A stretch of 64,000 bases of DNA from Shigella phage vb_GEC_SH_GT. The stretch lies in the sequence record OR887633; one strand, written 5' to 3'. Below the pieces are notes generated by a model. The model made no database searches. It was given only the letters and a program-made list of their open reading frames with translations, and was not told where the DNA came from. Both the position numbers and the translations under genes were made by a program. Shown here piece by piece: positions 2,040 through 61,689 of this stretch (its first letter is position 1; each line of letters begins with the position of its first letter).

Positions 2040-3359
2040 TCACACATAAAACACATCATAACGACCACGAGTGACACCAACATAAAGAAGCTGCTGAGCT
2101 AGTTCAGCATCTGCATAATGAATACAAGGCGTATAAATGAAAGCACGGTCTACAGACATGCCCTGCGCTTTATGGAATGTTGATGCAGGAAGTGCTTTCA
2201 CTTTACTAAACTGTGATTTAGCATCCCAAAAATCACTCCATGGAGCTTTTCCGCCTTTATTCCAATTTTTGTAAGTTTCTGCAGTTTTACCTAAAAATAG
2301 GTTAAACTTATATAGCTCTTCATCAGATGAAATTATTTTAATCTTTTCACGATAATATTCATCATCGCCGTAAGTTTCTACTGTTAAATCCCAATGACGA
2401 ATTAGATATTCTCCAGAAACACCACGAGCTTTAACAAATGTTGATGTATACTCTGCTTCTATAATACGAACTAATTGTCCGTTATTAAAAATAATTTCTG
2501 ACACAGGCTTTCCATCAATTTTATATGTTTTAATTAATGGTTCCTGCATTACAATAATTTCACCAACGATAAAATCTTTATCAGTTTCAAAAATCTTTTT
2601 ACGAATAATGCTATTTAACTTATCAACAGATTTATTCGTAAATGCCATTACGCGATTTTCAAACAAATCATCTAGTGATTTTACGATTGAAAAATAATTT
2701 ACCATAAAATCGCGTAAAGCGGTATCACCAGTAAATCCACGTACTCCATGTCCGTCAACAACTTTATCATAAATCCACTTACCGTTACGAACATCAGTAG
2801 CTACATCAATAATAGGAGCATTACTGCGTTTAACTTCAGTGAGTTCACACTGATAAAAATCTTTGTGCGTAAAGAATGGACTGATATAAGCAGTGTTTTC
2901 TCCTGGGTCAACAGGTCTAATTTGCTTATTATCGCCTATTCCAATTATAGTACACCATGGCGGGATAGTTGAAAGCAGAATTTTAAATAGCTTTCTATCA
3001 TACATTGACACTTCGTCGCAGATTAATACTCTGCATTTAGCCAAATCTGGTACTTCTTTTTGTTCAAAAAGAACGTTTTCTTCGTATGTTACCGGGTTAA
3101 TTTTAAGAATACTGTGAATAGTACTCGCTTCTTTCCCTGATAGTTTTGAAAGAATCTTTTTAGCTGCATGTGTAGGAGCTGCTAAAATAATTCCAGTTTC
3201 GCCTGTAGATATTAAGGCTTCAATGATGAACTTAGTAAGAGTAGTCTTACCAGTACCAGCAGGTCCATTAATAGTTACATGATGTTTCTTTTCTTTGATA
3301 GCCCTCATAACAATGTTAAAGGCATTTTTCTGGCCTTCGGTCAAATCATCAAATGTCAT
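2040..3359 (-). CDS. dda: Dda DNA helicase (SF1B)
   Basis: 439 aa; Walker A GPAGTGKTT, helicase motifs; length and N-terminus MTFDDLTEGQKNAF as T4 Dda. Confidence 0.95.
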   Translation of the reverse strand: MTFDDLTEGQKNAFNIVMRAIKEKKHHVTINGPAGTGKTTLTKFIIEALISTGETGIILAAPTHAAKKILSKLSGKEASTIHSILKINPVTYEENVLFEQKEVPDLAKCRVLICDEVSMYDRKLFKILLSTIPPWCTIIGIGDNKQIRPVDPGENTAYISPFFTHKDFYQCELTEVKRSNAPIIDVATDVRNGKWIYDKVVDGHGVRGFTGDTALRDFMVNYFSIVKSLDDLFENRVMAFTNKSVDKLNSIIRKKIFETDKDFIVGEIIVMQEPLIKTYKIDGKPVSEIIFNNGQLVRIIEAEYTSTFVKARGVSGEYLIRHWDLTVETYGDDEYYREKIKIISSDEELYKFNLFLGKTAETYKNWNKGGKAPWSDFWDAKSQFSKVKALPASTFHKAQGMSVDRAFIYTPCIHYADAELAQQLLYVGVTRGRYDVFYV

Positions 3360-3667
3360 CGTAAATTCCCTGCAATTGGTATACTAACAATACGCCCAGT
3401 ATCTAAAATTCGCCGATATAATCTTTGTGTGTCTACATCAGGCTTAACATGTTTAACTTCTATTTTATTAAACCAAAACTTGCGTGGAGTCTCAACTAAT
3501 CTCGGAATTCCCATACCTAAAGCTAGTTGATACTGCTCTTTAAGAGTAGTAAATACTTTATCAGCAATCTCCCTTTCAAAAAATACAGCAGGACGATGTT
3601 CATCAAGAGGAACAGGCACCGCAAATCCATCTTTATCTCTATACACTATCGCATATACATAAAACAT
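3356..3667 (-). CDS. hypothetical protein (dda.1 position)
   Basis: 103 aa ORF overlapping dda start by 4 nt (translational coupling). Confidence 0.5.
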   Translation of the reverse strand: MFYVYAIVYRDKDGFAVPVPLDEHRPAVFFEREIADKVFTTLKEQYQLALGMGIPRLVETPRKFWFNKIEVKHVKPDVDTQRLYRRILDTGRIVSIPIAGNLR

Positions 3668-12295: not shown

Positions 12296-12589
12296 TTACT
12301 CACCTACCACTTCAGCGATGATATTTTTATTATTAAAGTTTTTATCGCAATACAAAACGTAATTATACTGCATTACACCACCAGACTTAAGCTGTTTTTG
12401 CACTTCAGCTTTCATTTCAGGACGATCACGCTCAACGATATTCATAATATCTGCTTCAATTTGAGTTTCAACTTCAGTCTGATCTGCAGTCATAGACCAT
12501 TCACACAAGTCTTTATCATAACCCGCCATAGCAGGCTGAGCAGCGCAAGAAGATAAAGCAAAAATTGCAGCAAAGATAAATTTTTTCAT
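12296..12589 (-). CDS. sp: Spackle-like periplasmic protein (superinfection exclusion, lysozyme inhibitor)
   Basis: 97 aa; cleavable signal peptide MKKFIFAAIFALSSCAAQPAMA; size and position as T4 sp (61.3). Confidence 0.75.
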   Translation of the reverse strand: MKKFIFAAIFALSSCAAQPAMAGYDKDLCEWSMTADQTEVETQIEADIMNIVERDRPEMKAEVQKQLKSGGVMQYNYVLYCDKNFNNKNIIAEVVGE

Positions 12590-16777: not shown

Positions 16778-17626
16778 TTAATCAACTGCTATTGGATGAA
16801 TAGCATTAAACTTATGAAACGCTTCTGATTTTTCTTTGCGCGAAACACACATGCGAAGAACCTTTAATGGCTCGTCTTCTTCACCTAATGATTTTCGTTT
16901 TTCAATATTAGAAGTTTTCCAACGAGCTTGCTCTGGAAATTCTCTATTGATTTGCTCAAGAGCTCTATTATGTTTTGAATTACTACGAATTGAACTACAT
17001 CCACCCGGAGCCTGCGCTTTTCCAGACACAACCAGATATTTGAACAAGGCCAAATGCGGATAACCTTGATTAATTAAATTGAGAAATGCATACATATCTT
17101 CGCATAAATCAATTTTTCCATACCCAATTTGTTCTGTTGTAAGTTTTCCAAGGTCATACCATGTATTCGTGAATCCATATGAATTTTCACGATAATTACC
17201 CCAAGATGAAGTAATTTTAAAAATTGGTAAACGAGCATGACCATGATAATACCCGCAATCCATGGCATCTTCAACGTATTGAATCAATTCATAGAACTGT
17301 TCACCAGTTAACTGATTAATTTTATCTACGCAGCGACGATCATCTTTCTTTCGCATTGAACTCATACGAATAGTAGTATCATCATCAATCATCCAAATTC
17401 GCTGACCTGCATACATATCAGTAATCGCTTTACGAGTACCAGCAATTCCATTGACATCATCAGGAATAGTTATAATTTTAGCTCTAGACCCATAAGCATC
17501 ATAATAAGCTTTTTCTTCGTGTTCACGTACTACAATATGTGGTTCATAATCAGATGGAAACATATCAAGGGCAGAAACTGCCCCTACGCGTTGATAGCTT
17601 GGAATTACAAATTGAATCATTTCCAC
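16778..17626 (-). CDS. putative glycosyltransferase (GT-A/GT2-like) at the beta-gt locus
   Basis: 282 aa; N-terminal VIPSYQR and hydrophobic-DDD motif (WMIDDDTT); unlike T4 beta-gt; between uvsX and 42. Confidence 0.55.
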   Translation of the reverse strand: MEMIQFVIPSYQRVGAVSALDMFPSDYEPHIVVREHEEKAYYDAYGSRAKIITIPDDVNGIAGTRKAITDMYAGQRIWMIDDDTTIRMSSMRKKDDRRCVDKINQLTGEQFYELIQYVEDAMDCGYYHGHARLPIFKITSSWGNYRENSYGFTNTWYDLGKLTTEQIGYGKIDLCEDMYAFLNLINQGYPHLALFKYLVVSGKAQAPGGCSSIRSNSKHNRALEQINREFPEQARWKTSNIEKRKSLGEEDEPLKVLRMCVSRKEKSEAFHKFNAIHPIAVD

Positions 17627-18357
17627 TCACCGTTATAATCTTTTTTCGCAATATGAGTTTCGCCAGTTTTCCACCAATGGTCAACCAAATAAAAATGACG
17701 AGAATACACATGAAGGCTTCCGACATTCCATATAATGGAACCTGCTTTATACTGACGAGTTGAATCACCTGCATTCAAATCAGATACTAATTTATCTAGT
17801 ACGTATTTTTGCCATGCATAATCATTACGGAATCCGAAGACCACGTCATTTGAACGCATGTTTACTACTGCATTGACTTTCTTGTCACGAATCAGGTACT
17901 GTACTGTATTCGTACACATGAAATCTGACATACCATCTTTGTTGTAGTCAAACTGCATGGATGGACGAGTATAAATCATGATACCACGTCGAGAATCAGG
18001 ATTTTGACCAAGTTCAGCTAAACACATATCATACTGAGCATAGTTATCTTCTGACCAGATGGCCCAACCATAATTTGAGTTAATTTCGCCTTTAGAAGAT
18101 GCTACCTGCTGCCAAATCTTGGGTGTTTCACCTGGAATATCTTTAACAAACAGACTTTGAGACTTATACCATTCAAGTTCACGCTGAATGTATTCATCAT
18201 TAAGAGCGCCAAAAATAAAATGTTCATCTGCTACAAATGATGCACCAATAATTTCAATAGTTTTAACACCGGTTTTATCAATTACGAAATCTTTTTCCTT
18301 TAATGCAAGACCCAAATCAAGACGGATTTCTTCAACTGTCATATAATCGTTAATCAT
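17617..18357 (-). CDS. 42: dCMP hydroxymethylase gp42
   Basis: 246 aa; thymidylate-synthase-like fold signature; T4 gp42 length. Confidence 0.9.
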   Translation of the reverse strand: MINDYMTVEEIRLDLGLALKEKDFVIDKTGVKTIEIIGASFVADEHFIFGALNDEYIQRELEWYKSQSLFVKDIPGETPKIWQQVASSKGEINSNYGWAIWSEDNYAQYDMCLAELGQNPDSRRGIMIYTRPSMQFDYNKDGMSDFMCTNTVQYLIRDKKVNAVVNMRSNDVVFGFRNDYAWQKYVLDKLVSDLNAGDSTRQYKAGSIIWNVGSLHVYSRHFYLVDHWWKTGETHIAKKDYNGEWK

Positions 18358-18364
18358 TTAAACC

Positions 18365-18514
18365 TCAATTGATGCATTCATATTTAATTTGTAACAGTAA
18401 TAAACTCCAACCTATAATAAGTGGCGGAATCATAAGAGGAACTGTTACGCTATAGTATATACTTATTATAATCATCAAGATTAAAAGCAATACTGCTAAA
18501 ATTTTGCTTTTCAT
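18365..18514 (-). CDS. small hydrophobic membrane peptide (49 aa)
   Basis: Hand-translated MKSKILAVLLLILMIIISIYYSVTVPLMIPPLIIGWSLLLLQIKYECIN; ATG overlaps imm stop (ATGA); SD GAGAAGGA. Confidence 0.4.
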   Translation of the reverse strand: MKSKILAVLLLILMIIISIYYSVTVPLMIPPLIIGWSLLLLQIKYECIN

Positions 18515-18762
18515 TCCTTCTCTCTGATGATAATTACTTGATTTTGCTGTACAGATTTTTTAGTTTCACCCGCAATTGACCAAATAAATGTAATAAACCA
18601 ACCAATGATTGACCAGTTAAACAGTAAAGATGTGAAAAAGATTCCTACTGTCGATTTTGACCCACGCATCAAGGCGATGAACCATGGAAGCATGTATATA
18701 ATAATAGCCAACACGCCTGAAACTAAAACCATAAAAATTGAACCTGCTACTAAAGTTTCCAT
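18511..18762 (-). CDS. imm: Imm (immunity to superinfection) membrane protein
   Basis: 83 aa, two TM helices; size and position next to 42. Confidence 0.85.
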   Translation of the reverse strand: METLVAGSIFMVLVSGVLAIIIYMLPWFIALMRGSKSTVGIFFTSLLFNWSIIGWFITFIWSIAGETKKSVQQNQVIIIREKE

Positions 18763-18769
18763 GTTTTCC

Positions 18770-19150
18770 TCACTTAGTCAAATTTTTTACACATGAATTA
18801 TAAGAATTCACTACATACTCCATCGGAGCATTTTTACCAGTACGCCATTGGTAATTATTAGCCCAATTTGCCCAAAGTTCAGCGCAGTAGCTTTCAATTT
18901 TTTCTTCGCGTGTAATTACATCTGAATTACGATATGCTTGGGCAGATTCATCTGGACGAATAGCTTCGTCAAAATTCGCCTGCATTTGTTCTACTGTCTG
19001 TTTTGGAGCCTCTTTATAGCACTTGACGTTAGGATTATAAAATTTGCTTGAACAGTTTACAATTTTTCCTACATCAGACTGATTTACTACCGGTCCTTGA
19101 GCTACACACCCAGTAAGACCCAATGCAATAACCAAAATAGCGATTTTCAT
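18770..19150 (-). CDS. putative lipoprotein (126 aa)
   Basis: Signal peptide with lipobox LGLTGC; several Cys in mature part. Confidence 0.6.
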   Translation of the reverse strand: MKIAILVIALGLTGCVAQGPVVNQSDVGKIVNCSSKFYNPNVKCYKEAPKQTVEQMQANFDEAIRPDESAQAYRNSDVITREEKIESYCAELWANWANNYQWRTGKNAPMEYVVNSYNSCVKNLTK

Positions 19151-19160
19151 AACAATTTCC

Positions 19161-19391
19161 TCAAATACAAGTAGTAATTACTCCAGTAGTGCTTACACAG
19201 GTATTACCTAATTGAACACCCAACGTTCCATTAGTATTCATATGAAGATTATCATCAATTTTTGTTGATACTTTACCATTCATGTGAATAACAGTATTAG
19301 ATTCAATCACATTCTGAGTGCCATTTTCAATAAATGGAACAGTTGCTAATGCAACTAAACACACTGCTAAACATCCATAAACAATTTTCAT
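19161..19391 (-). CDS. small secreted protein (76 aa)
   Basis: Start trimmed from TTG artefact to MKIVYGCLAVCLVALATVPF signal peptide; early promoter 19424..19455. Confidence 0.5.
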   Translation of the reverse strand: MKIVYGCLAVCLVALATVPFIENGTQNVIESNTVIHMNGKVSTKIDDNLHMNTNGTLGVQLGNTCVSTTGVITTCI

Positions 19392-19423
19392 TTTATTCTC
19401 CAAATCCGTATCAGTTGATAGTT

Positions 19424-19455
19424 ATATAGTACCACGGAAGAACAGGGATGTAAAC
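19424..19455 (-). promoter_or_regulatory. T4-type early promoter (repeated cassette copy)
   Basis: Minus strand GTTTACATCCCTGTTCTTCCGTGGTACTATATAAC followed by conserved leader. Confidence 0.6.
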
Positions 19456-19536
19456 AGTTTTGTGAAAAAATTTTTAATGAATTCCAGAGGTCCAGAATCA
19501 TCTATTTTTCCTAAGTATAGATTTATATTACTTGTA

Positions 19537-19559
19537 TGAAAAAGGGACCCGGAGGTCCC
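19537..19559 (-). terminator. intrinsic terminator (after gene 43)
   Basis: Minus strand GGGACCUCCGGGUCCC then CUUUUUC. Confidence 0.65.
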
Positions 19560-19572
19560 TAGATTTATTCTA

Positions 19573-22269
19573 TCAGCCAAACAGGAAGTCTAACGAAGCT
19601 TTTTCTTCATAGTCCATACCCGCCGATTCACACATACCCGCAAGCGGTTTAACAAACGATTTTTGGAACAAAGTTGAGTAGTCAATCCAAGATAGTACGT
19701 CAGAGCGAATTTCTTTTGGAAGCTCCGTCCCCGATGGCCAAGCAATGCACTTGTCACCAAATGGATTTCCCTCACGTAACGGAAGAACCATTACCTTATT
19801 TCCATCCAAAATTGGAGCTACACCTAAACCGCTAACAGCTCGACGATAAGTTAGTACACCACGAATATGGAACGGGCATTTAAACCCTGGCCAACCTTTA
19901 TCATCATATTTCGCTATATCGTTCGCGGTTTTTACTTCAGCAATAACTTTATAATCAAGTTGACGATATTCTTTCTCAAAGTTCTTATAGTATTCTTGGA
20001 CAGACTCTTCGCCTTCCTGAAGAATACGACGAATACTTTCTTCGAGAGCTTCTTGTACTGCTTTTGGTGTTGAACTCTGCTGAGTTTCCATACCCATGAT
20101 TTTTAGATGTGGTTCAGCAAATCGCTTATCTTCCATATCATAAACGTTCAGAGCATAACGTTTTTTCGCTTTCCAAAATCCACCAACACCCTTTGAACCA
20201 AGCGGAGGACAAGAAATAGCTTCACGGTCCATATGCATCAGATGCTCGCGGTTATTCATATAATCACATAACTCACGATATGCAACATCAATCATAGGTT
20301 CCATCTTTTTCTTACCAAACTGATTCATGAATTCAACTAAATCATTTTGTTCTTTAAAGCGGTCAAGACCTACTTTTTCAATTACTTTATCTACACAAAC
20401 ATATACCGAATCAGTATCACCCGCGGCGATGAAATCTTCACCATCAGTTCCACATACTTTATTCAGATATTCATTAATTTTACGAGCAATCCACTGAATA
20501 CCAACTTGACCGAAAATTGTGATAGCAGTAGCATTTCGCAAATCATAGTAACGGAAATGAATATTACCAAGAGCACCATAAAGACTGTTGATAAGAATTT
20601 TACGGTTTAGCTGATTTGTGTTAGCAAGTGTAGCTGCTTTTTCACATTCTTCGATCAGACTATTAAGAACAGATTCAGTGTAATTCGATAATTCATTTAA
20701 GAAATCATCATTGAACTTAACATATCGTTCAACTTCTGGTTTAGTTGAACAAGACCCTGCGCCTTTCATAATAATCTTTTTAATAGCTTCGGCATTCATT
20801 TCTTCGGCGAACATTTTCTTTTTCCAATCTTTACGCTGGAAAAATACTTTAGCGATTTCCTTTGGAATGATACCTTCTTGGTGCTTATCATACATCCATC
20901 CATTCGGAGAACAAGAATATTCATCACTTGGTTTAGGAGCTGTTCCTGCGATGTATTCATGAATTGGATGAACTTTGAACTGTCCGCGAATAGTCTCAGG
21001 ACTAATGTTAACCTGACGAATAATGCTAGGATACAGAGACGTCAGGTCAAAACTCATAATGTATCGACGGGCAATCGCTTTAGGTTCAAACACAAATGCA
21101 CCTGGAAAACTTTGTTTAACGTGCGAACCTTGTTGAGGAATAACCTTATGTTCACCTTTCAGTGAGTTAAAAATAATAGCGTCCCAAGTTTTAATAGGAC
21201 TCATTACACCAGAAAAAGGCATTTTAGCGTAATAAGACATACTTAAAACTAGATCAATAAACCCACGAATTTTATCAATTGCTTGAACTGATTCTACGTC
21301 AATGATGTTATAACTAATGTATCGTTGATGATTATTCTCACGAAGTTTATTAATAGGACCATCGTACGGCAATTTACCTTTTTTGGTTTCGTGCTGAGCA
21401 ACTGATTCCAAAGAGAACGATGGCAAATTAGTAAATGCGAATTTCTTGTACAAATCTAAATAATCAAGAATAGATACGCCATCAATAGAATAAATTTCTT
21501 TGCTACCGTACATATTTTGAATTAGTTTAGATTTTACTCGACCGATTGGAGAGAAGCGTTTCATACTACGTTCGCCGAGAACCATTTTAATACGATTCAT
21601 GATATACGGAACGTCAAATCCCTCAATATTCCAACCGGTAAAAATAGCAGGTCGTTTCTGTTCCCAGAGATTAATATATTCCATGAGCATATCACGCTCA
21701 TTATCGAATGGCATATAAATTACTCGGTCAAGAATTTCTTGAGGAACTTCATCACCACCTTCACAGTCAAGTTTAGCAGCTAACTTTGCATCCCATTTTG
21801 ATACTGAACCGTACATTGAATTCAACAAATCAAAGACGTAAAAACGGTCGTCAATTGAATCATAATGAGTGATAGCATCAATTTCATATTCTGCTTTCAT
21901 TGGGTCAGGAAATTTATCACCAGTAACCTCAATGTCGCAGTTAGCTACACGAACAAATTTTCGGTCATAAACAATTTCTGAACCATATGTATCACTGATA
22001 TAAGCGAGTTTAAAATCGTTCATACCGAGAGCTTCGAGACCGATGTCTTCCATTCGTTTCATCCAATCTCGTGCATCTTTCATTGATGGAAATTTTTGAG
22101 GAGCACAGTTTTTACCATAAATGTCTTTGTATTTTGACTCTTCCTTACAGTGCCTAAACATAGTCGGAAGATATTCTACTTCACGAGTACGTTCCTTTCC
22201 GTTTTCATCAATATAACGCTCAACAATATTATTTCCGACTGTTTCGATAGAGATATAAAATTCTTTCAT
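19573..22269 (-). CDS. 43: DNA polymerase gp43 (family B)
   Basis: 898 aa; exo motifs (FDIE), pol motifs DxxSLYPS, KxxxNSxYG, DTDS; uninterrupted. Confidence 0.97.
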   Translation of the reverse strand: MKEFYISIETVGNNIVERYIDENGKERTREVEYLPTMFRHCKEESKYKDIYGKNCAPQKFPSMKDARDWMKRMEDIGLEALGMNDFKLAYISDTYGSEIVYDRKFVRVANCDIEVTGDKFPDPMKAEYEIDAITHYDSIDDRFYVFDLLNSMYGSVSKWDAKLAAKLDCEGGDEVPQEILDRVIYMPFDNERDMLMEYINLWEQKRPAIFTGWNIEGFDVPYIMNRIKMVLGERSMKRFSPIGRVKSKLIQNMYGSKEIYSIDGVSILDYLDLYKKFAFTNLPSFSLESVAQHETKKGKLPYDGPINKLRENNHQRYISYNIIDVESVQAIDKIRGFIDLVLSMSYYAKMPFSGVMSPIKTWDAIIFNSLKGEHKVIPQQGSHVKQSFPGAFVFEPKAIARRYIMSFDLTSLYPSIIRQVNISPETIRGQFKVHPIHEYIAGTAPKPSDEYSCSPNGWMYDKHQEGIIPKEIAKVFFQRKDWKKKMFAEEMNAEAIKKIIMKGAGSCSTKPEVERYVKFNDDFLNELSNYTESVLNSLIEECEKAATLANTNQLNRKILINSLYGALGNIHFRYYDLRNATAITIFGQVGIQWIARKINEYLNKVCGTDGEDFIAAGDTDSVYVCVDKVIEKVGLDRFKEQNDLVEFMNQFGKKKMEPMIDVAYRELCDYMNNREHLMHMDREAISCPPLGSKGVGGFWKAKKRYALNVYDMEDKRFAEPHLKIMGMETQQSSTPKAVQEALEESIRRILQEGEESVQEYYKNFEKEYRQLDYKVIAEVKTANDIAKYDDKGWPGFKCPFHIRGVLTYRRAVSGLGVAPILDGNKVMVLPLREGNPFGDKCIAWPSGTELPKEIRSDVLSWIDYSTLFQKSFVKPLAGMCESAGMDYEEKASLDFLFG

Positions 22270-34161: not shown

Positions 34162-34190
34162 ATCAAATCCTCAAAGGCAATTTATATGTT

Positions 34191-34221
34191 AATAATACCA
34201 CAGTTTAAACTTCTTGTAAAC
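34191..34221 (-). promoter_or_regulatory. T4-type early promoter
   Basis: Minus strand GTTTAC...TGTGGTATTATTAAC. Confidence 0.5.
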
Positions 34222-34295
34222 AACTTTGTGAAAATTATTTTAGGGAATGATAAGAAGGGAACGATAGCTTAGAATGGTAATATACAGAATGTGAG

Positions 34296-44270: not shown

Positions 44271-44798
44271 TTATGCGAGTACCGTCTTTAACCGTTCTTC
44301 AAACTTCCGAAGAGTATTTTGGCGTTCAGCTCTTTGCTTTTTGTAAGTTTCAATACGCTCTGAAATGAGAGTGTATCGTTCATTTACTGATTCTTTCATA
44401 AAATCAGGAATTTCACGAGAAGCTTTAATCTCATCAAATTTATCAATAACAGCTTGCTCTTCAGCAATTAAGTTATCATACATTAAAATATCTTTCTTGA
44501 TGAACTCAATATCTTCTTGAGTTACACGAGACATTTTAGATGCTTTATCCTTTTTGTACTGTTCGTTAGTATCACGAGACCAATGTAATGTACGATTTTT
44601 ATTCGTATTCTTGTAAATTTCTACAATACCAATCTCATCAATAATAACGATCCAATTCCAACGGGATTTGTAAATTTGTCCTCCATCAACAGTGATTTCA
44701 CCTCCGATTGAGATGTCATTAAAGAACTTGCTTTGTGCTTCAGATTTAAATTTACCATCGTTGTAATTTACCAAGTTAAAAATATCTTTAGCGTTCAT
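44271..44798 (-). CDS. hypothetical protein (175 aa)
   Basis: Own early promoter 44814..44846; helical C-terminus. Confidence 0.5.
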   Translation of the reverse strand: MNAKDIFNLVNYNDGKFKSEAQSKFFNDISIGGEITVDGGQIYKSRWNWIVIIDEIGIVEIYKNTNKNRTLHWSRDTNEQYKKDKASKMSRVTQEDIEFIKKDILMYDNLIAEEQAVIDKFDEIKASREIPDFMKESVNERYTLISERIETYKKQRAERQNTLRKFEERLKTVLA

Positions 44799-44813
44799 TT
44801 TCTGTTCCTCCGT

Positions 44814-44846
44814 AGTTGATAGTTGTATAGTACCACAGAGGAACAG
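44814..44846 (-). promoter_or_regulatory. T4-type early promoter (cassette)
   Basis: Minus strand GTTTAC...TGGTACTATACAAC. Confidence 0.55.
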
Positions 44847-44858
44847 TCTTGTAAACCA

Positions 44859-45173
44859 CTAAAAGAAACTTCTTTCACAATTTTTTCCACTGAACCATGC
44901 GCTCACTGCTTTCTTAGTCTCAGGAGCAGTGTTATCCATAAACCATTCAAAGGCAGCCTTTTTATGATTCTGGAGGGCTTCTCGGGCTTTAATCTGCTCA
45001 CGGTCTATTAACACTAACATATGAGCCTTTCTTGTCACCATGGGCTTCTTATGATTTTTTGAATATTCCCAATCATTTGTCCATCGCATCGTTGTTGCGA
45101 ATTGAAGTACAGCTTCTTTAATTTTAGTTTCGTAAATTTCACGAGCCTTTGAGTATAACATCACTACCTCCAT
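44859..45173 (-). CDS. hypothetical protein (104 aa)
   Basis: ORF. Confidence 0.45.
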   Translation of the reverse strand: MEVVMLYSKAREIYETKIKEAVLQFATTMRWTNDWEYSKNHKKPMVTRKAHMLVLIDREQIKAREALQNHKKAAFEWFMDNTAPETKKAVSAWFSGKNCERSFF

Positions 45174-45262: not shown

Positions 45263-46231
45263 TTATTTCAGAAGAGTAACCTCAGCGATTTCTTCCCAAC
45301 CGTTTTTGTCGGTCATAATAAAGTCAGCAAGATAAAGTGCAGTACGCAGTGAAACATTACGTAAACGGTTAACATTGACTTTCATCCATGATAATGCTTT
45401 GTAAGTTTCTTCATCAGAAAGACCGCGTTTTTGCATCATGTCGGTTGAAAGAATAACATCTTCAACCCTGACCATAATTTCTTCATTAGTGTGAACACCC
45501 AAATCTAAATAAACTGAGCGGGACACTAATGCTTGTAAATGTGGAGCAAGTTTAGTACCACGGTCTAATTCGCGGTCAATGTCAACGTTTGTGATAAAAA
45601 CAATCGTTCCTTTAAATTCAAACTCACGCTCAATGCCTTTTTCTTCTAAGTAAGAAGATGCAGTGCTCCAGCAGACTTTACGGGTCTCTCCAGTGTCCAG
45701 AGCAGCTTTCAGAAGATTAAGAATGTCCATATCAGAGAAAACATCCACATCATCAATCAAAAGGACAGAATTCTCTTCACGATTATTCCAAAGCTGTTCA
45801 TAAAGACCGATACCGGAGATTTTACCGTTAATGCTTTTATATTCAATGTATCCATTGTCATTTGCTTTATTTAAAGCTTTATCTAAAGAATACGTTTTAC
45901 CAATACCCGCCGCACCAGAGATAATTAATGAACGAATGTTTCCGTTAATAATACCATTCGTCATCATTCCCATAACATTAAATCTTTTATTAATGCGGGT
46001 TTTCATATCTTCATATGATTCTTTAACTTCTTCAACTTTTACACCATCATATGAAATGTCTGATTTGTAAACCCAAACACCACGACGTTTACCGTCAATT
46101 TCAACAAAAACTTTACCATCTCCTTGTGCATCTACCGGAGCATTATCCGGGAACCATTCGCCTAAGAGCTCAAAAGTTCCAGAGATTTCTTTACCGAAGT
46201 AGATACCCTTATTGATAGTTACAGTTTTCAT
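45263..46231 (-). CDS. P-loop NTPase (AAA-like)
   Basis: Start trimmed from TTG artefact; Walker A GAAGIGKT and Walker B VLLIDDVD; early promoter 46264..46295. Confidence 0.6.
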   Translation of the reverse strand: MKTVTINKGIYFGKEISGTFELLGEWFPDNAPVDAQGDGKVFVEIDGKRRGVWVYKSDISYDGVKVEEVKESYEDMKTRINKRFNVMGMMTNGIINGNIRSLIISGAAGIGKTYSLDKALNKANDNGYIEYKSINGKISGIGLYEQLWNNREENSVLLIDDVDVFSDMDILNLLKAALDTGETRKVCWSTASSYLEEKGIEREFEFKGTIVFITNVDIDRELDRGTKLAPHLQALVSRSVYLDLGVHTNEEIMVRVEDVILSTDMMQKRGLSDEETYKALSWMKVNVNRLRNVSLRTALYLADFIMTDKNGWEEIAEVTLLK

Positions 46232-46263
46232 TTTATTCTCCAAATCCGTATCAGTTGATAGAT

Positions 46264-46295
46264 GTATAGTACCATAAAGCTTTATGCTTGTAAAC
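46264..46295 (-). promoter_or_regulatory. T4-type early promoter (repeated cassette copy)
   Basis: Minus strand GTTTAC...TACTATACAT; leader identical over 37 nt to the copy at 19381..19420. Confidence 0.6.
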
Positions 46296-46320
46296 AGTTT
46301 TGTGAAAAATTTTTGAAATA

Positions 46321-61516: not shown

Positions 61517-61556
61517 TTTATTCTCCAAGTTGTTTTCTGTATCAGTAGTTGATAGT

Positions 61557-61589
61557 TGTATAGTACCATGGAAGAACAGGGATGTAAAC
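61557..61589 (-). promoter_or_regulatory. T4-type early promoter (cassette copy)
   Basis: Minus strand GTTTACATCCCTGTTCTTCCATGGTACTATACAAC. Confidence 0.55.
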
Positions 61590-61689
61590 AGTTTAATGAA
61601 AAAATTTTAAAAAAGTTTTAGGGAATTTTAGGGCGAGGAGGGGTAATTAAAAGATAGGATAATATATTATAAAGGGTAGAAACTAAATG

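Follow-up and report, generated by a model that had tools for sequence, protein, structure and literature searches.

The superinfection immunity gene imm of Shigella phage vb_GEC_SH_GT (record OR887633) lies in a run of small minus-strand genes between gene 43 and gene 42, which we analyzed within a 64,000-nucleotide stretch of the genome, referred to below as the window. The explanation we favor, with moderate confidence, is that the interval forms an early operon in which Imm.1, a predicted lipoprotein, and Imm constitute a two-gene anti-superinfection unit, accompanied by a 49-residue membrane micro-protein and by a cassette-borne gene for a 76-residue protein. A preliminary description of the sequence had grouped the membrane peptide, the lipoprotein and the small secreted protein as an envelope-targeted trio around imm. 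Every element that it named is present where it had been placed. The three genes are real and early, their products are predicted to be envelope-directed, they share one operon with imm, and in each lineage with a member of its family (Pfam DUF5481), imm.1 and imm are linked. The part that did not stand is the grouping as a whole, as the genes for the 76- and 49-residue proteins are not tied to imm. The locus itself is known ground, an ordinary and heavily sequenced T-even stretch whose flanking genes are already catalogued as uncharacterized families. The 1.3-kb region gave 535 matches to phage records at ≥90% identity, nearly all from Tequatrovirus, and its sequence identifies it as the usual early operon spanning genes 43 to 42 in a T2/T6-like Tequatrovirus. 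Database copies of the 76-residue protein and Imm.1 from vb_GEC_SH_GT are identical to those encoded in the window.

On the minus strand the cistrons follow one another in the order 76-residue open reading frame (ORF), imm.1, imm, 49-residue ORF and gene 42, behind a single sigma-70 early promoter that lies just past the gene 43 terminator, and with intercistronic gaps of 10, 7, −4 and 7 nt. The stop codon of every cistron overlaps the Shine-Dalgarno site of the next. A terminator scan from the 76-residue ORF to gene 42 found no convincing terminator, and an Rfam search of positions 17000-20000 returned no family matches. Chance reading frames can be set aside: in comparisons with distant relatives the proportion of synonymous differences (pS) stands well above that of nonsynonymous differences (pN), insertions and deletions are multiples of three, and all three flanking ORFs are under purifying selection. 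Gene order between 43 and 42, the promoter, the terminator and the middle promoter are all shared with the imm.1-imm locus of T4, where the interval is annotated as 43, imm.1, imm, 42. Compared with T4, the window has an extra gene, that for the 76-residue protein, between the promoter and imm.1, and T4 lacks exactly 241 nt there. Imm itself scored 58.1 bits against Pfam Imm_superinfect (PF14373; E 7.8e-16, gathering threshold 27.9 bits) and is 96% identical to T4 Imm (NP_049660).

The case for a two-gene unit comes from linkage. In all 23 related loci, which represent five lineages (Tequatrovirus, 13 loci; Mosigvirus, 6; three rare lineages, 4), imm is the next gene downstream of imm.1, while the surrounding order is 43-imm.1-imm-49aa-42, 43-imm.1-imm-42, 43-frd3-like-imm.1-imm-49aa or, in Mosigvirus, dmd-imm.1-imm-sp. 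In these last phages, which are RB69-like, the imm.1-imm pair has shifted together by about 10 kb and lies directly beside the spackle gene, sp, whose product is 66% identical to Sp of the window. Invariable adjacency combined with joint relocation is good neighborhood evidence that imm.1 and imm form a unit, and we add to the preliminary description that the two genes behave as one. The family is tiny, with six clusters among 1.84 billion representative proteins in a full HMMER search and three in a word-indexed search, and a scan of IMG/VR and metagenomes for DUF5481 found nothing beyond Tequatrovirus, Mosigvirus and the three rare lineages.

The window lipoprotein matched DUF5481 (PF17578) along the entire profile (positions 1-103 of 103) with 237.1 bits and an E-value of 2.4e-71, against a gathering threshold of 27 bits; the Mosigvirus relative scored 38.3 bits. 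A comparison with T4 imm.1 had been proposed, and the protein proved to be its counterpart (NP_049661, P18057, Y02D_BPT4), with 98% identity, one additional residue and a 1-nt insertion or deletion at the end of the gene. Relative to T4, pN is 0.01 and pS 0.14, and between genera pN reaches 0.40-0.47. Sequences at least 95% identical to Imm.1 occur in 501 records, those of T2, T4 and T6 among them.

Targeting of the proteins of the locus was assessed by rule-based checks together with motif conservation in homologues. By these means the lipoprotein call was upheld: the N terminus reads MK-IAILVIALG-LTGC, and L-T-G-C at residues 12-15 passes both a PROSITE-type rule and the pattern [LVI][ASTVI][GAS]C, as expected of a signal peptidase II lipobox with Cys15 as the predicted modified residue. 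The lipobox cysteine is found in six of seven DUF5481 sequences, Phe replacing it in the relative P0028, and in all five lipoproteins of a sister family described below. In none of the 11 lipobox-bearing sequences is residue +2 an Asp; V, G, A or Q stands there instead. A lipoprotein that lacks Asp at +2 is sorted to the outer membrane, so Lol export of Imm.1 to that membrane would be expected, and we infer that Imm.1 is an acylated outer-membrane lipoprotein. Of the other cysteines, C89 and C120 never vary, and C33 and C44 occur or are lost as a pair, a pattern that fits two disulfides in the oxidizing periplasm. An AlphaFold2 (AF2) model is helical with a predicted local distance difference test score (pLDDT) of 64, confidence being confined to the helical hairpin at the C terminus (residues 81-125). 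A fold search in BFVD recovered the protein's own family only, and no fold or sequence link to known families emerged from Pfam, PHROG, PADLOC, NCBIfam, PDB or the fold searches. In NP_049661 and many RefSeq records the NCBI product name is 'iduronate sulfatase', for which Pfam, NCBIfam, PDB and fold searches gave no support.

Published data place T4 Imm.1 among the early products of infection. P18057 was quantified from 1 min post infection and falls into the early RNA and early protein class (PMC9697503, Tables S2 and S3). In a CRISPRi-ART screen of T4, knock-down of imm.1 was scored 'Not Fit' (score −0.77, p 0.98; PMC11879866, supplement). The absence of a cost in single-phage infection is what would be expected of an exclusion gene, yet it is not positive evidence for one. 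Our literature search found no main-text study of imm.1 or DUF5481 and no published exclusion test for Imm.1, the 49-residue or the 76-residue protein; in a paper reporting an accessory-gene screen, Imm appears in the list and Imm.1 does not.

Spackle (gp61.3), the periplasmic inhibitor of the gp5 lysozyme of T4, resembles Imm.1 in being small, early, exported, helical and disulfide-containing, and its gene directly follows imm.1-imm in Mosigvirus. Spackle, which takes part in exclusion, differs in being, as reported, a soluble product cut by signal peptidase I, whereas Imm.1 is predicted to be lipid-anchored; no sequence similarity between the two was detected. Two T4 exclusion proteins are known, Imm and Sp (PMC7677548, PMC6832632). 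As a separate observation, imm.1, imm and sp are consecutive between dmd and the gene 61 region in RB69-like phages (positions 2495-3530 of locus L005, Mosigvirus SA79RD; also L025, L026 and L032-L034), and in these phages both known exclusion genes adjoin an Imm.1 homologue. The window Spackle (12296-12589, minus strand) begins MKKFIFAAIFALSSC, so that its residues 12-15, L-S-S-C, fit the lipobox pattern as well. Mature Sp is published as a 75-residue soluble product of signal peptidase I cleavage after AMA at residue 22; either the pattern is unused or Sp processing is worth re-examination.

The preliminary description had placed a small signal-peptide protein behind a repeated early-promoter cassette, and both features were recovered. 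The ATG of the 76-residue ORF lies 6 nt after GGAG, and the protein passes the rules for Sec export and signal peptidase I cleavage, with an MK n-region, a hydrophobic core (MK + IVYGCLAVCLVALA) and A-L-A|T at residues 14-17 in agreement with the −3/−1 rule. Among homologues the AxA site is conserved and the hydrophobic region tolerates 7-residue duplications. The mature protein, about 60 residues long, is rich in N, T and G and carries Cys65 and Cys75, a pair near the C terminus; a largely beta structure is predicted for it, although the AF2 model is of low confidence (pLDDT 55). The ORF belongs to PHROG 4189 (E 8e-25) and has 15 homologue clusters, and against the Dhakavirus homologue pS is 0.68 and pN 0.24. 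Variation is also seen in its annotation and N terminus. Some records (P0004, P0009 and SA21RB_049, which is L003 2362-2709) stretch the gene to 114-115 residues from an ATG inside the early promoter (window 19388-19501), which looks like a mis-called start. In variants P0006, P0011 and P0013 the hydrophobic core of the signal peptide contains tandem duplications of 7 residues (CLVALAA), and one duplication variant gains an L-A-A-C lipobox, its UniRef cluster being named 'Lipoprotein'. A candidate relationship to the beta-helix of the gp5 needle, as a mimic, was rejected as a product of beta-strand periodicity and post-hoc selection: tblastn reached E ~0.5 and only gp5 of Klebsiella phages, one pairwise score exceeded all 200 shuffles, the comparison with T4 gp5 gave 15.8 bits, a value reached by 31 of 100 shuffles and hence no signal, and a family-profile search of PDB returned no gp5.

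The early promoter in front of this gene has the form GTTTACA-N17-TGGTACTAT at 19454-19426, with the −35 element GTTTACA at 19455-19449 and the extended −10 element TGGTACTAT at 19434-19426. It recurs at 61555-61589 with two mismatches, where chance predicts no such repeat. A longer cassette of 54-65 nt, which includes the 5′ untranslated region (UTR), the Shine-Dalgarno site and the first codons, is repeated at 46221-46317, 44782-44878, 34179-34243 and 61547-61611, giving five copies within the window, and in T4 the same cassette directly precedes imm.1. The copy at 46221-46317 is 94% identical through the 5′ UTR, Shine-Dalgarno site and first codons (ATGAAAAC/TTGT) and drives an unrelated 322-residue protein (45263-46231, minus strand), so the cassette reaches into the coding start.

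These features resemble the PeSLs of T4-type phages, promoter-terminator cassettes known to shuffle such ORFs (PMC2839356, PMC4122927). As in PeSLs, a stem-loop terminator (19560-19543) and a near-identical early promoter (19454-19426) are joined, with repeats across the genome and bordering ORFs that vary among close relatives. The 76-residue gene is absent from T4, and it is present in 10 and missing from 3 of the 13 Tequatrovirus loci. The insertion or deletion is exactly 241 nt and is bounded by ATGAAAAT, which starts both the 76-residue ORF and imm.1. The Dhakavirus homologue is preceded by a similar promoter and 5′ UTR and is found far away from imm, in the e/nudE/denV region. Presence or absence of the 241 nt and relocation in Dhakavirus are the behavior described for PeSL cassettes, and the 76-residue gene is accessory, carried by a cassette and no permanent component of the locus. 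The locus departs from PeSLs at the junction of the insertion or deletion, which here is the 8-nt ATGAAAAT microhomology at two start codons rather than the promoter; it was also in RB49/phi1 and other pairs, not at this locus, that PeSLs were defined (Arbiol et al. 2010; Comeau et al. 2014).

The 49-residue peptide had been described as hydrophobic and translationally coupled to imm, and both properties are evident. Its ATG overlaps the imm TGA as ATGA (18511-18514), and its grand average of hydropathy (GRAVY) is 1.59, with two hydrophobic stretches at about residues 5-21 and 26-42 and a Pro-rich turn between them. The two ends are positively charged and the turn is neutral, which suggests a hairpin whose termini both face the cytoplasm. 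In Swiss-Prot the exact T4 sequence is listed as '5.6 kDa protein in Gp42-imm intergenic region', to which the window ORF is 88% identical; the window ORF falls into PHROG 3610 (E 1.9e-24), and all nine homologue clusters carry the precomputed Pfam tag PF26865.1. In the T4 RefSeq record the 153-nt gap between imm and gene 42 is unannotated, with the ORF intact (NC_000866 26227-26376; L001 5228-5377). By tblastn the ORF occurs in 769 phage records. It is intact in 10 lineages, including seven named genera (Tequatrovirus, Mosigvirus, Winklervirus, Kanagawavirus, Dhakavirus, Gaprivervirus and Mosugukvirus) and two metagenomic lineages. We add to the preliminary description that this is, as far as sequence can tell, a conserved membrane micro-protein of Tevenvirinae.

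The company kept by the 49-residue gene changes. In Tequatrovirus, Dhakavirus, Gaprivervirus and two metagenomic lineages the stop codon that it overlaps is that of imm; in Mosigvirus, Winklervirus and Mosugukvirus it is that of an unrelated gene, for a SIS-domain arabinose-5-phosphate isomerase. In Kanagawavirus an unannotated 49-residue ORF lies within a few bases downstream of the same SIS isomerase gene. A nucleotidyltransferase/kinase gene is found downstream in Mosigvirus, Winklervirus, Kanagawavirus and Mosugukvirus, and the 49-residue gene is missing entirely from one lineage. The gene keeps a stable place after gene 43 but has no fixed tie to imm.

Imm.1 is probably one member of a broader family of lipoproteins encoded in the gene 43-proximal cluster. 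A family that looks remotely related, with proteins of 137-175 residues, is encoded close to gene 43 in Dhakavirus, Gaprivervirus, Kanagawavirus, Winklervirus and Mosugukvirus. Its alignment to DUF5481 in hhalign reached 98.3% probability (E 2.5e-14), and 89.7% (E 1.8e-6, 75 columns) when the signal peptide and lipobox Cys were removed. The two families share the lipobox Cys, a mature N terminus of the form Q-G-x-V-V-x-x-S-E-V-G-K, two Cys pairs and an early-cluster position near gene 43, beside imm and/or the 49-residue gene. The sister proteins differ from Imm.1 in being longer, in carrying an inserted QCGxNC segment and in falling below Pfam DUF5481 detection. Gene order differs as well, being imm-49aa-lipoprotein or lipoprotein-SIS-49aa: in Dhakavirus and Gaprivervirus it is 43-imm-49aa-lipoprotein (166-167 residues), and in Kanagawavirus, Winklervirus and Mosugukvirus the lipoprotein gene comes immediately after gene 43. 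Across genera, then, an Imm.1-like lipoprotein gene, imm and the 49-residue gene recur within one small cluster in several orders.

Such fluidity invites an account without any functional module. The interval after gene 43 would be a hyperplastic slot for small early genes behind a strong early promoter, adjacency to imm would be merely inherited, and the envelope proteins would act independently, for example in lysis inhibition, in resistance to lysis from without or in host-specific adaptation. The 76-residue gene, present or absent among near-identical phages and housed in another region in Dhakavirus, behaves as this account predicts, and so does the 49-residue gene in following the SIS isomerase gene in four genera. 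Winklervirus CBH8 is also in keeping with it, having the lipoprotein gene, the 49-residue gene and sp and no imm in the first 50 kb, and PeSL cassettes offer a known means of shuffling (PMC2839356, PMC4122927). A slot of this kind does not readily accommodate imm.1 and imm, which are adjacent in 23 of 23 loci and moved jointly to a place beside the exclusion gene sp, nor the repeated return of an Imm.1-like lipoprotein gene, imm and the 49-residue gene to the same few-gene cluster in changed orders. We regard it as possible, though on balance doubtful.

At the opposite extreme, the Imm.1-superfamily outer-membrane lipoprotein, the inner-membrane protein Imm and the 49-residue hairpin would together build a single exclusion device that spans the envelope, was already present in the ancestor of the enterobacterial Tevenvirinae and has its genes just after gene 43. 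A device of this type would explain both the shuffled recurrence of the three genes and the landing of imm.1-imm beside spackle; we consider it improbable.

A further alternative denies the 49-residue ORF a protein function and has it conserved for the middle promoter and initiation region of gene 42, or only to carry translation over from imm to gene 42. The local architecture is suggestive. A MotA-type promoter lies inside the ORF (GCTT at 18488-18485, a 14-nt spacer and TATAAT at 18470-18465, annotated at the same site in phage SA21RB), and the stop codon of the ORF overlaps the gene 42 Shine-Dalgarno site. As the promoter starts within the ORF, full-length peptide would be made from early transcripts only. 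The gene imm is classically non-essential. In the T4 CRISPRi-ART screen, imm and gene 42 both scored 'Fit' (PMC11879866, supplement); for imm this could, speculatively, be a polar effect on early gp42 synthesis through the coupling of imm, the 49-residue ORF and gene 42. The pattern of change in the ORF is that of a protein. Between lineages pS is 0.45-0.98, near saturation, against a pN of 0.18-0.41, length differences are whole codons, and seven residues (P25, M27, I28, P29, W35, Q42 and C47) are invariant across seven genera. Its best-conserved part, the C-terminal half, lies outside the promoter, and the ORF persists in genomes where a gene other than gene 42 follows it. The codon substitution pattern rules out a purely non-coding regulatory region, and we judge the wider alternative very unlikely.

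Finally, Imm.1 might mask a receptor as T5 Llp and phi80/HK022 Cor do, by binding an outer-membrane receptor on its periplasmic side and blocking adsorption or triggering. The general design is the same, a small, early, phage-encoded outer-membrane lipoprotein, which in Llp and lambdoid Cor protects the infected cell from further phage (PMC9586334, which describes Llp, and PMC12373910). Llp and Cor block a specific receptor, FhuA, whereas Imm.1 resembles no known family in sequence or fold, with no matches that would place it with Llp or Cor in Pfam, PHROG, PADLOC, NCBIfam or PDB, and at 95% identity or more it recurs in T2, T4, T6 and hundreds of relatives with different receptors. Near-identity in phages such as T2, T4 and T6, which use different receptors, makes Llp/Cor-like masking unlikely, and we give it the least credence of the explanations considered.

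Several points weigh against Imm.1 and Imm as an exclusion pair with two small companions. The link of Imm.1 and of the 49- and 76-residue proteins to exclusion is drawn from gene neighborhood. Targeting is rule-based, and a lipobox match taken by itself is weak, as Spackle matches the pattern and its reported cut lies downstream. The structure models are also weak (pLDDT 64 and 55), and no match in the fold searches points to a mechanism. Knock-down of imm.1 without a fitness cost fits an accessory role and is silent on positive function. In Dhakavirus and Gaprivervirus, imm has no DUF5481 gene upstream, and the Winklervirus genome indicates that the wider lipoprotein family needs no adjacent imm. 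In the metagenomic lineage L010, Imm is 83% identical to that of the window, whereas Imm.1 is 43% identical and has lost the lipobox Cys, which argues against tight physical co-evolution of the pair.

With these reservations, the mechanism we envisage for the two-gene unit is as follows. T4 Imm blocks DNA transfer at the inner membrane. Imm.1 and Imm would act together against secondary T-even phages, Imm and the 49-residue hairpin inserting into the inner membrane and the disulfide cross-linked helical domain of Imm.1, about 110 residues, facing the periplasm. Imm.1 would work on the periplasmic or outer-membrane side, on a target conserved within the genus, such as an incoming tail tip, and not on a receptor. 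Its near-invariance within a genus and strong divergence between genera would suit such a target, though this is an inference only. The 49-residue peptide would usually be co-translated with Imm, yet kept independently of the position of imm, and the 76-residue protein would leave the cytoplasm through Sec and lose its signal peptide to signal peptidase I.

Table 1. Positions of features in and around the gene 43-gene 42 early operon of the window, with sister-family lipoprotein genes in related loci
Feature	Position	Strand	Basis or detail
DNA polymerase gp43	19573-22269	(-)	Flanking gene; Pfam/PHROG
Intrinsic terminator after gene 43	19543..19560	(-)	GGGACC-UCCG-GGUCCC + U5; terminator scan
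T4-type early promoter cassette	19392..19477	(-)	Promoter, 5′ UTR, GGAG Shine-Dalgarno
76-residue accessory gene, PHROG 4189	19161..19391	(-)	Predicted Sec signal peptide, ALA|T after residue 16
imm.1, 126-residue predicted lipoprotein precursor, DUF5481	18770..19150	(-)	Lipobox L-T-G-C, Cys15
imm, 83-residue inner-membrane superinfection immunity protein	18511..18762	(-)	Pfam Imm_superinfect
49-residue predicted two-helix membrane micro-protein, PHROG 3610 / PF26865	18365..18514	(-)	ATGA overlap with imm stop
MotA-type middle promoter for gene 42, inside 49-residue ORF	18465..18491	(-)	Read from sequence
Gene 42, dCMP hydroxymethylase, last cistron	17617..18357	(-)	Pfam Thymidylat_synt, PHROG 160, T4 gp42 orthologue
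beta-glucosyl-HMC-alpha-glucosyltransferase	16778-17626	(-)	Pfam TAGT, PHROG 842
Sister lipoproteins	L016 2102-2605; L015 2101-2601; L014 810-1337; L006 1414-1827; L017 804-1331		

The features of the locus are collected in Table 1. The hairpin of the terminator that follows gene 43 has a fold energy of −13.9 kcal/mol, and the terminator is also annotated in phage SA21RB. The glucosyltransferase gene has a GTG start and overlaps the end of gene 42 by 10 nt; presence of this enzyme indicates that glucosylation of the phage DNA would be of the T2/T6 type and not of the T4 type. Another minus-strand neighbor of the locus is uvsX.

Two consequences concern the annotation and genetics of T-even phages. 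The T4 reference annotation omits a conserved gene for a 49-residue membrane protein, and translational coupling from imm through this ORF to gene 42 may confound knock-down screens. For superinfection exclusion itself, how Imm stops T-even DNA entry is a question that dates from the 1970s-90s. If it is true that Imm.1 is a partner of Imm, its soluble periplasmic domain could be purified and would provide a handle for finding the tail or envelope target.

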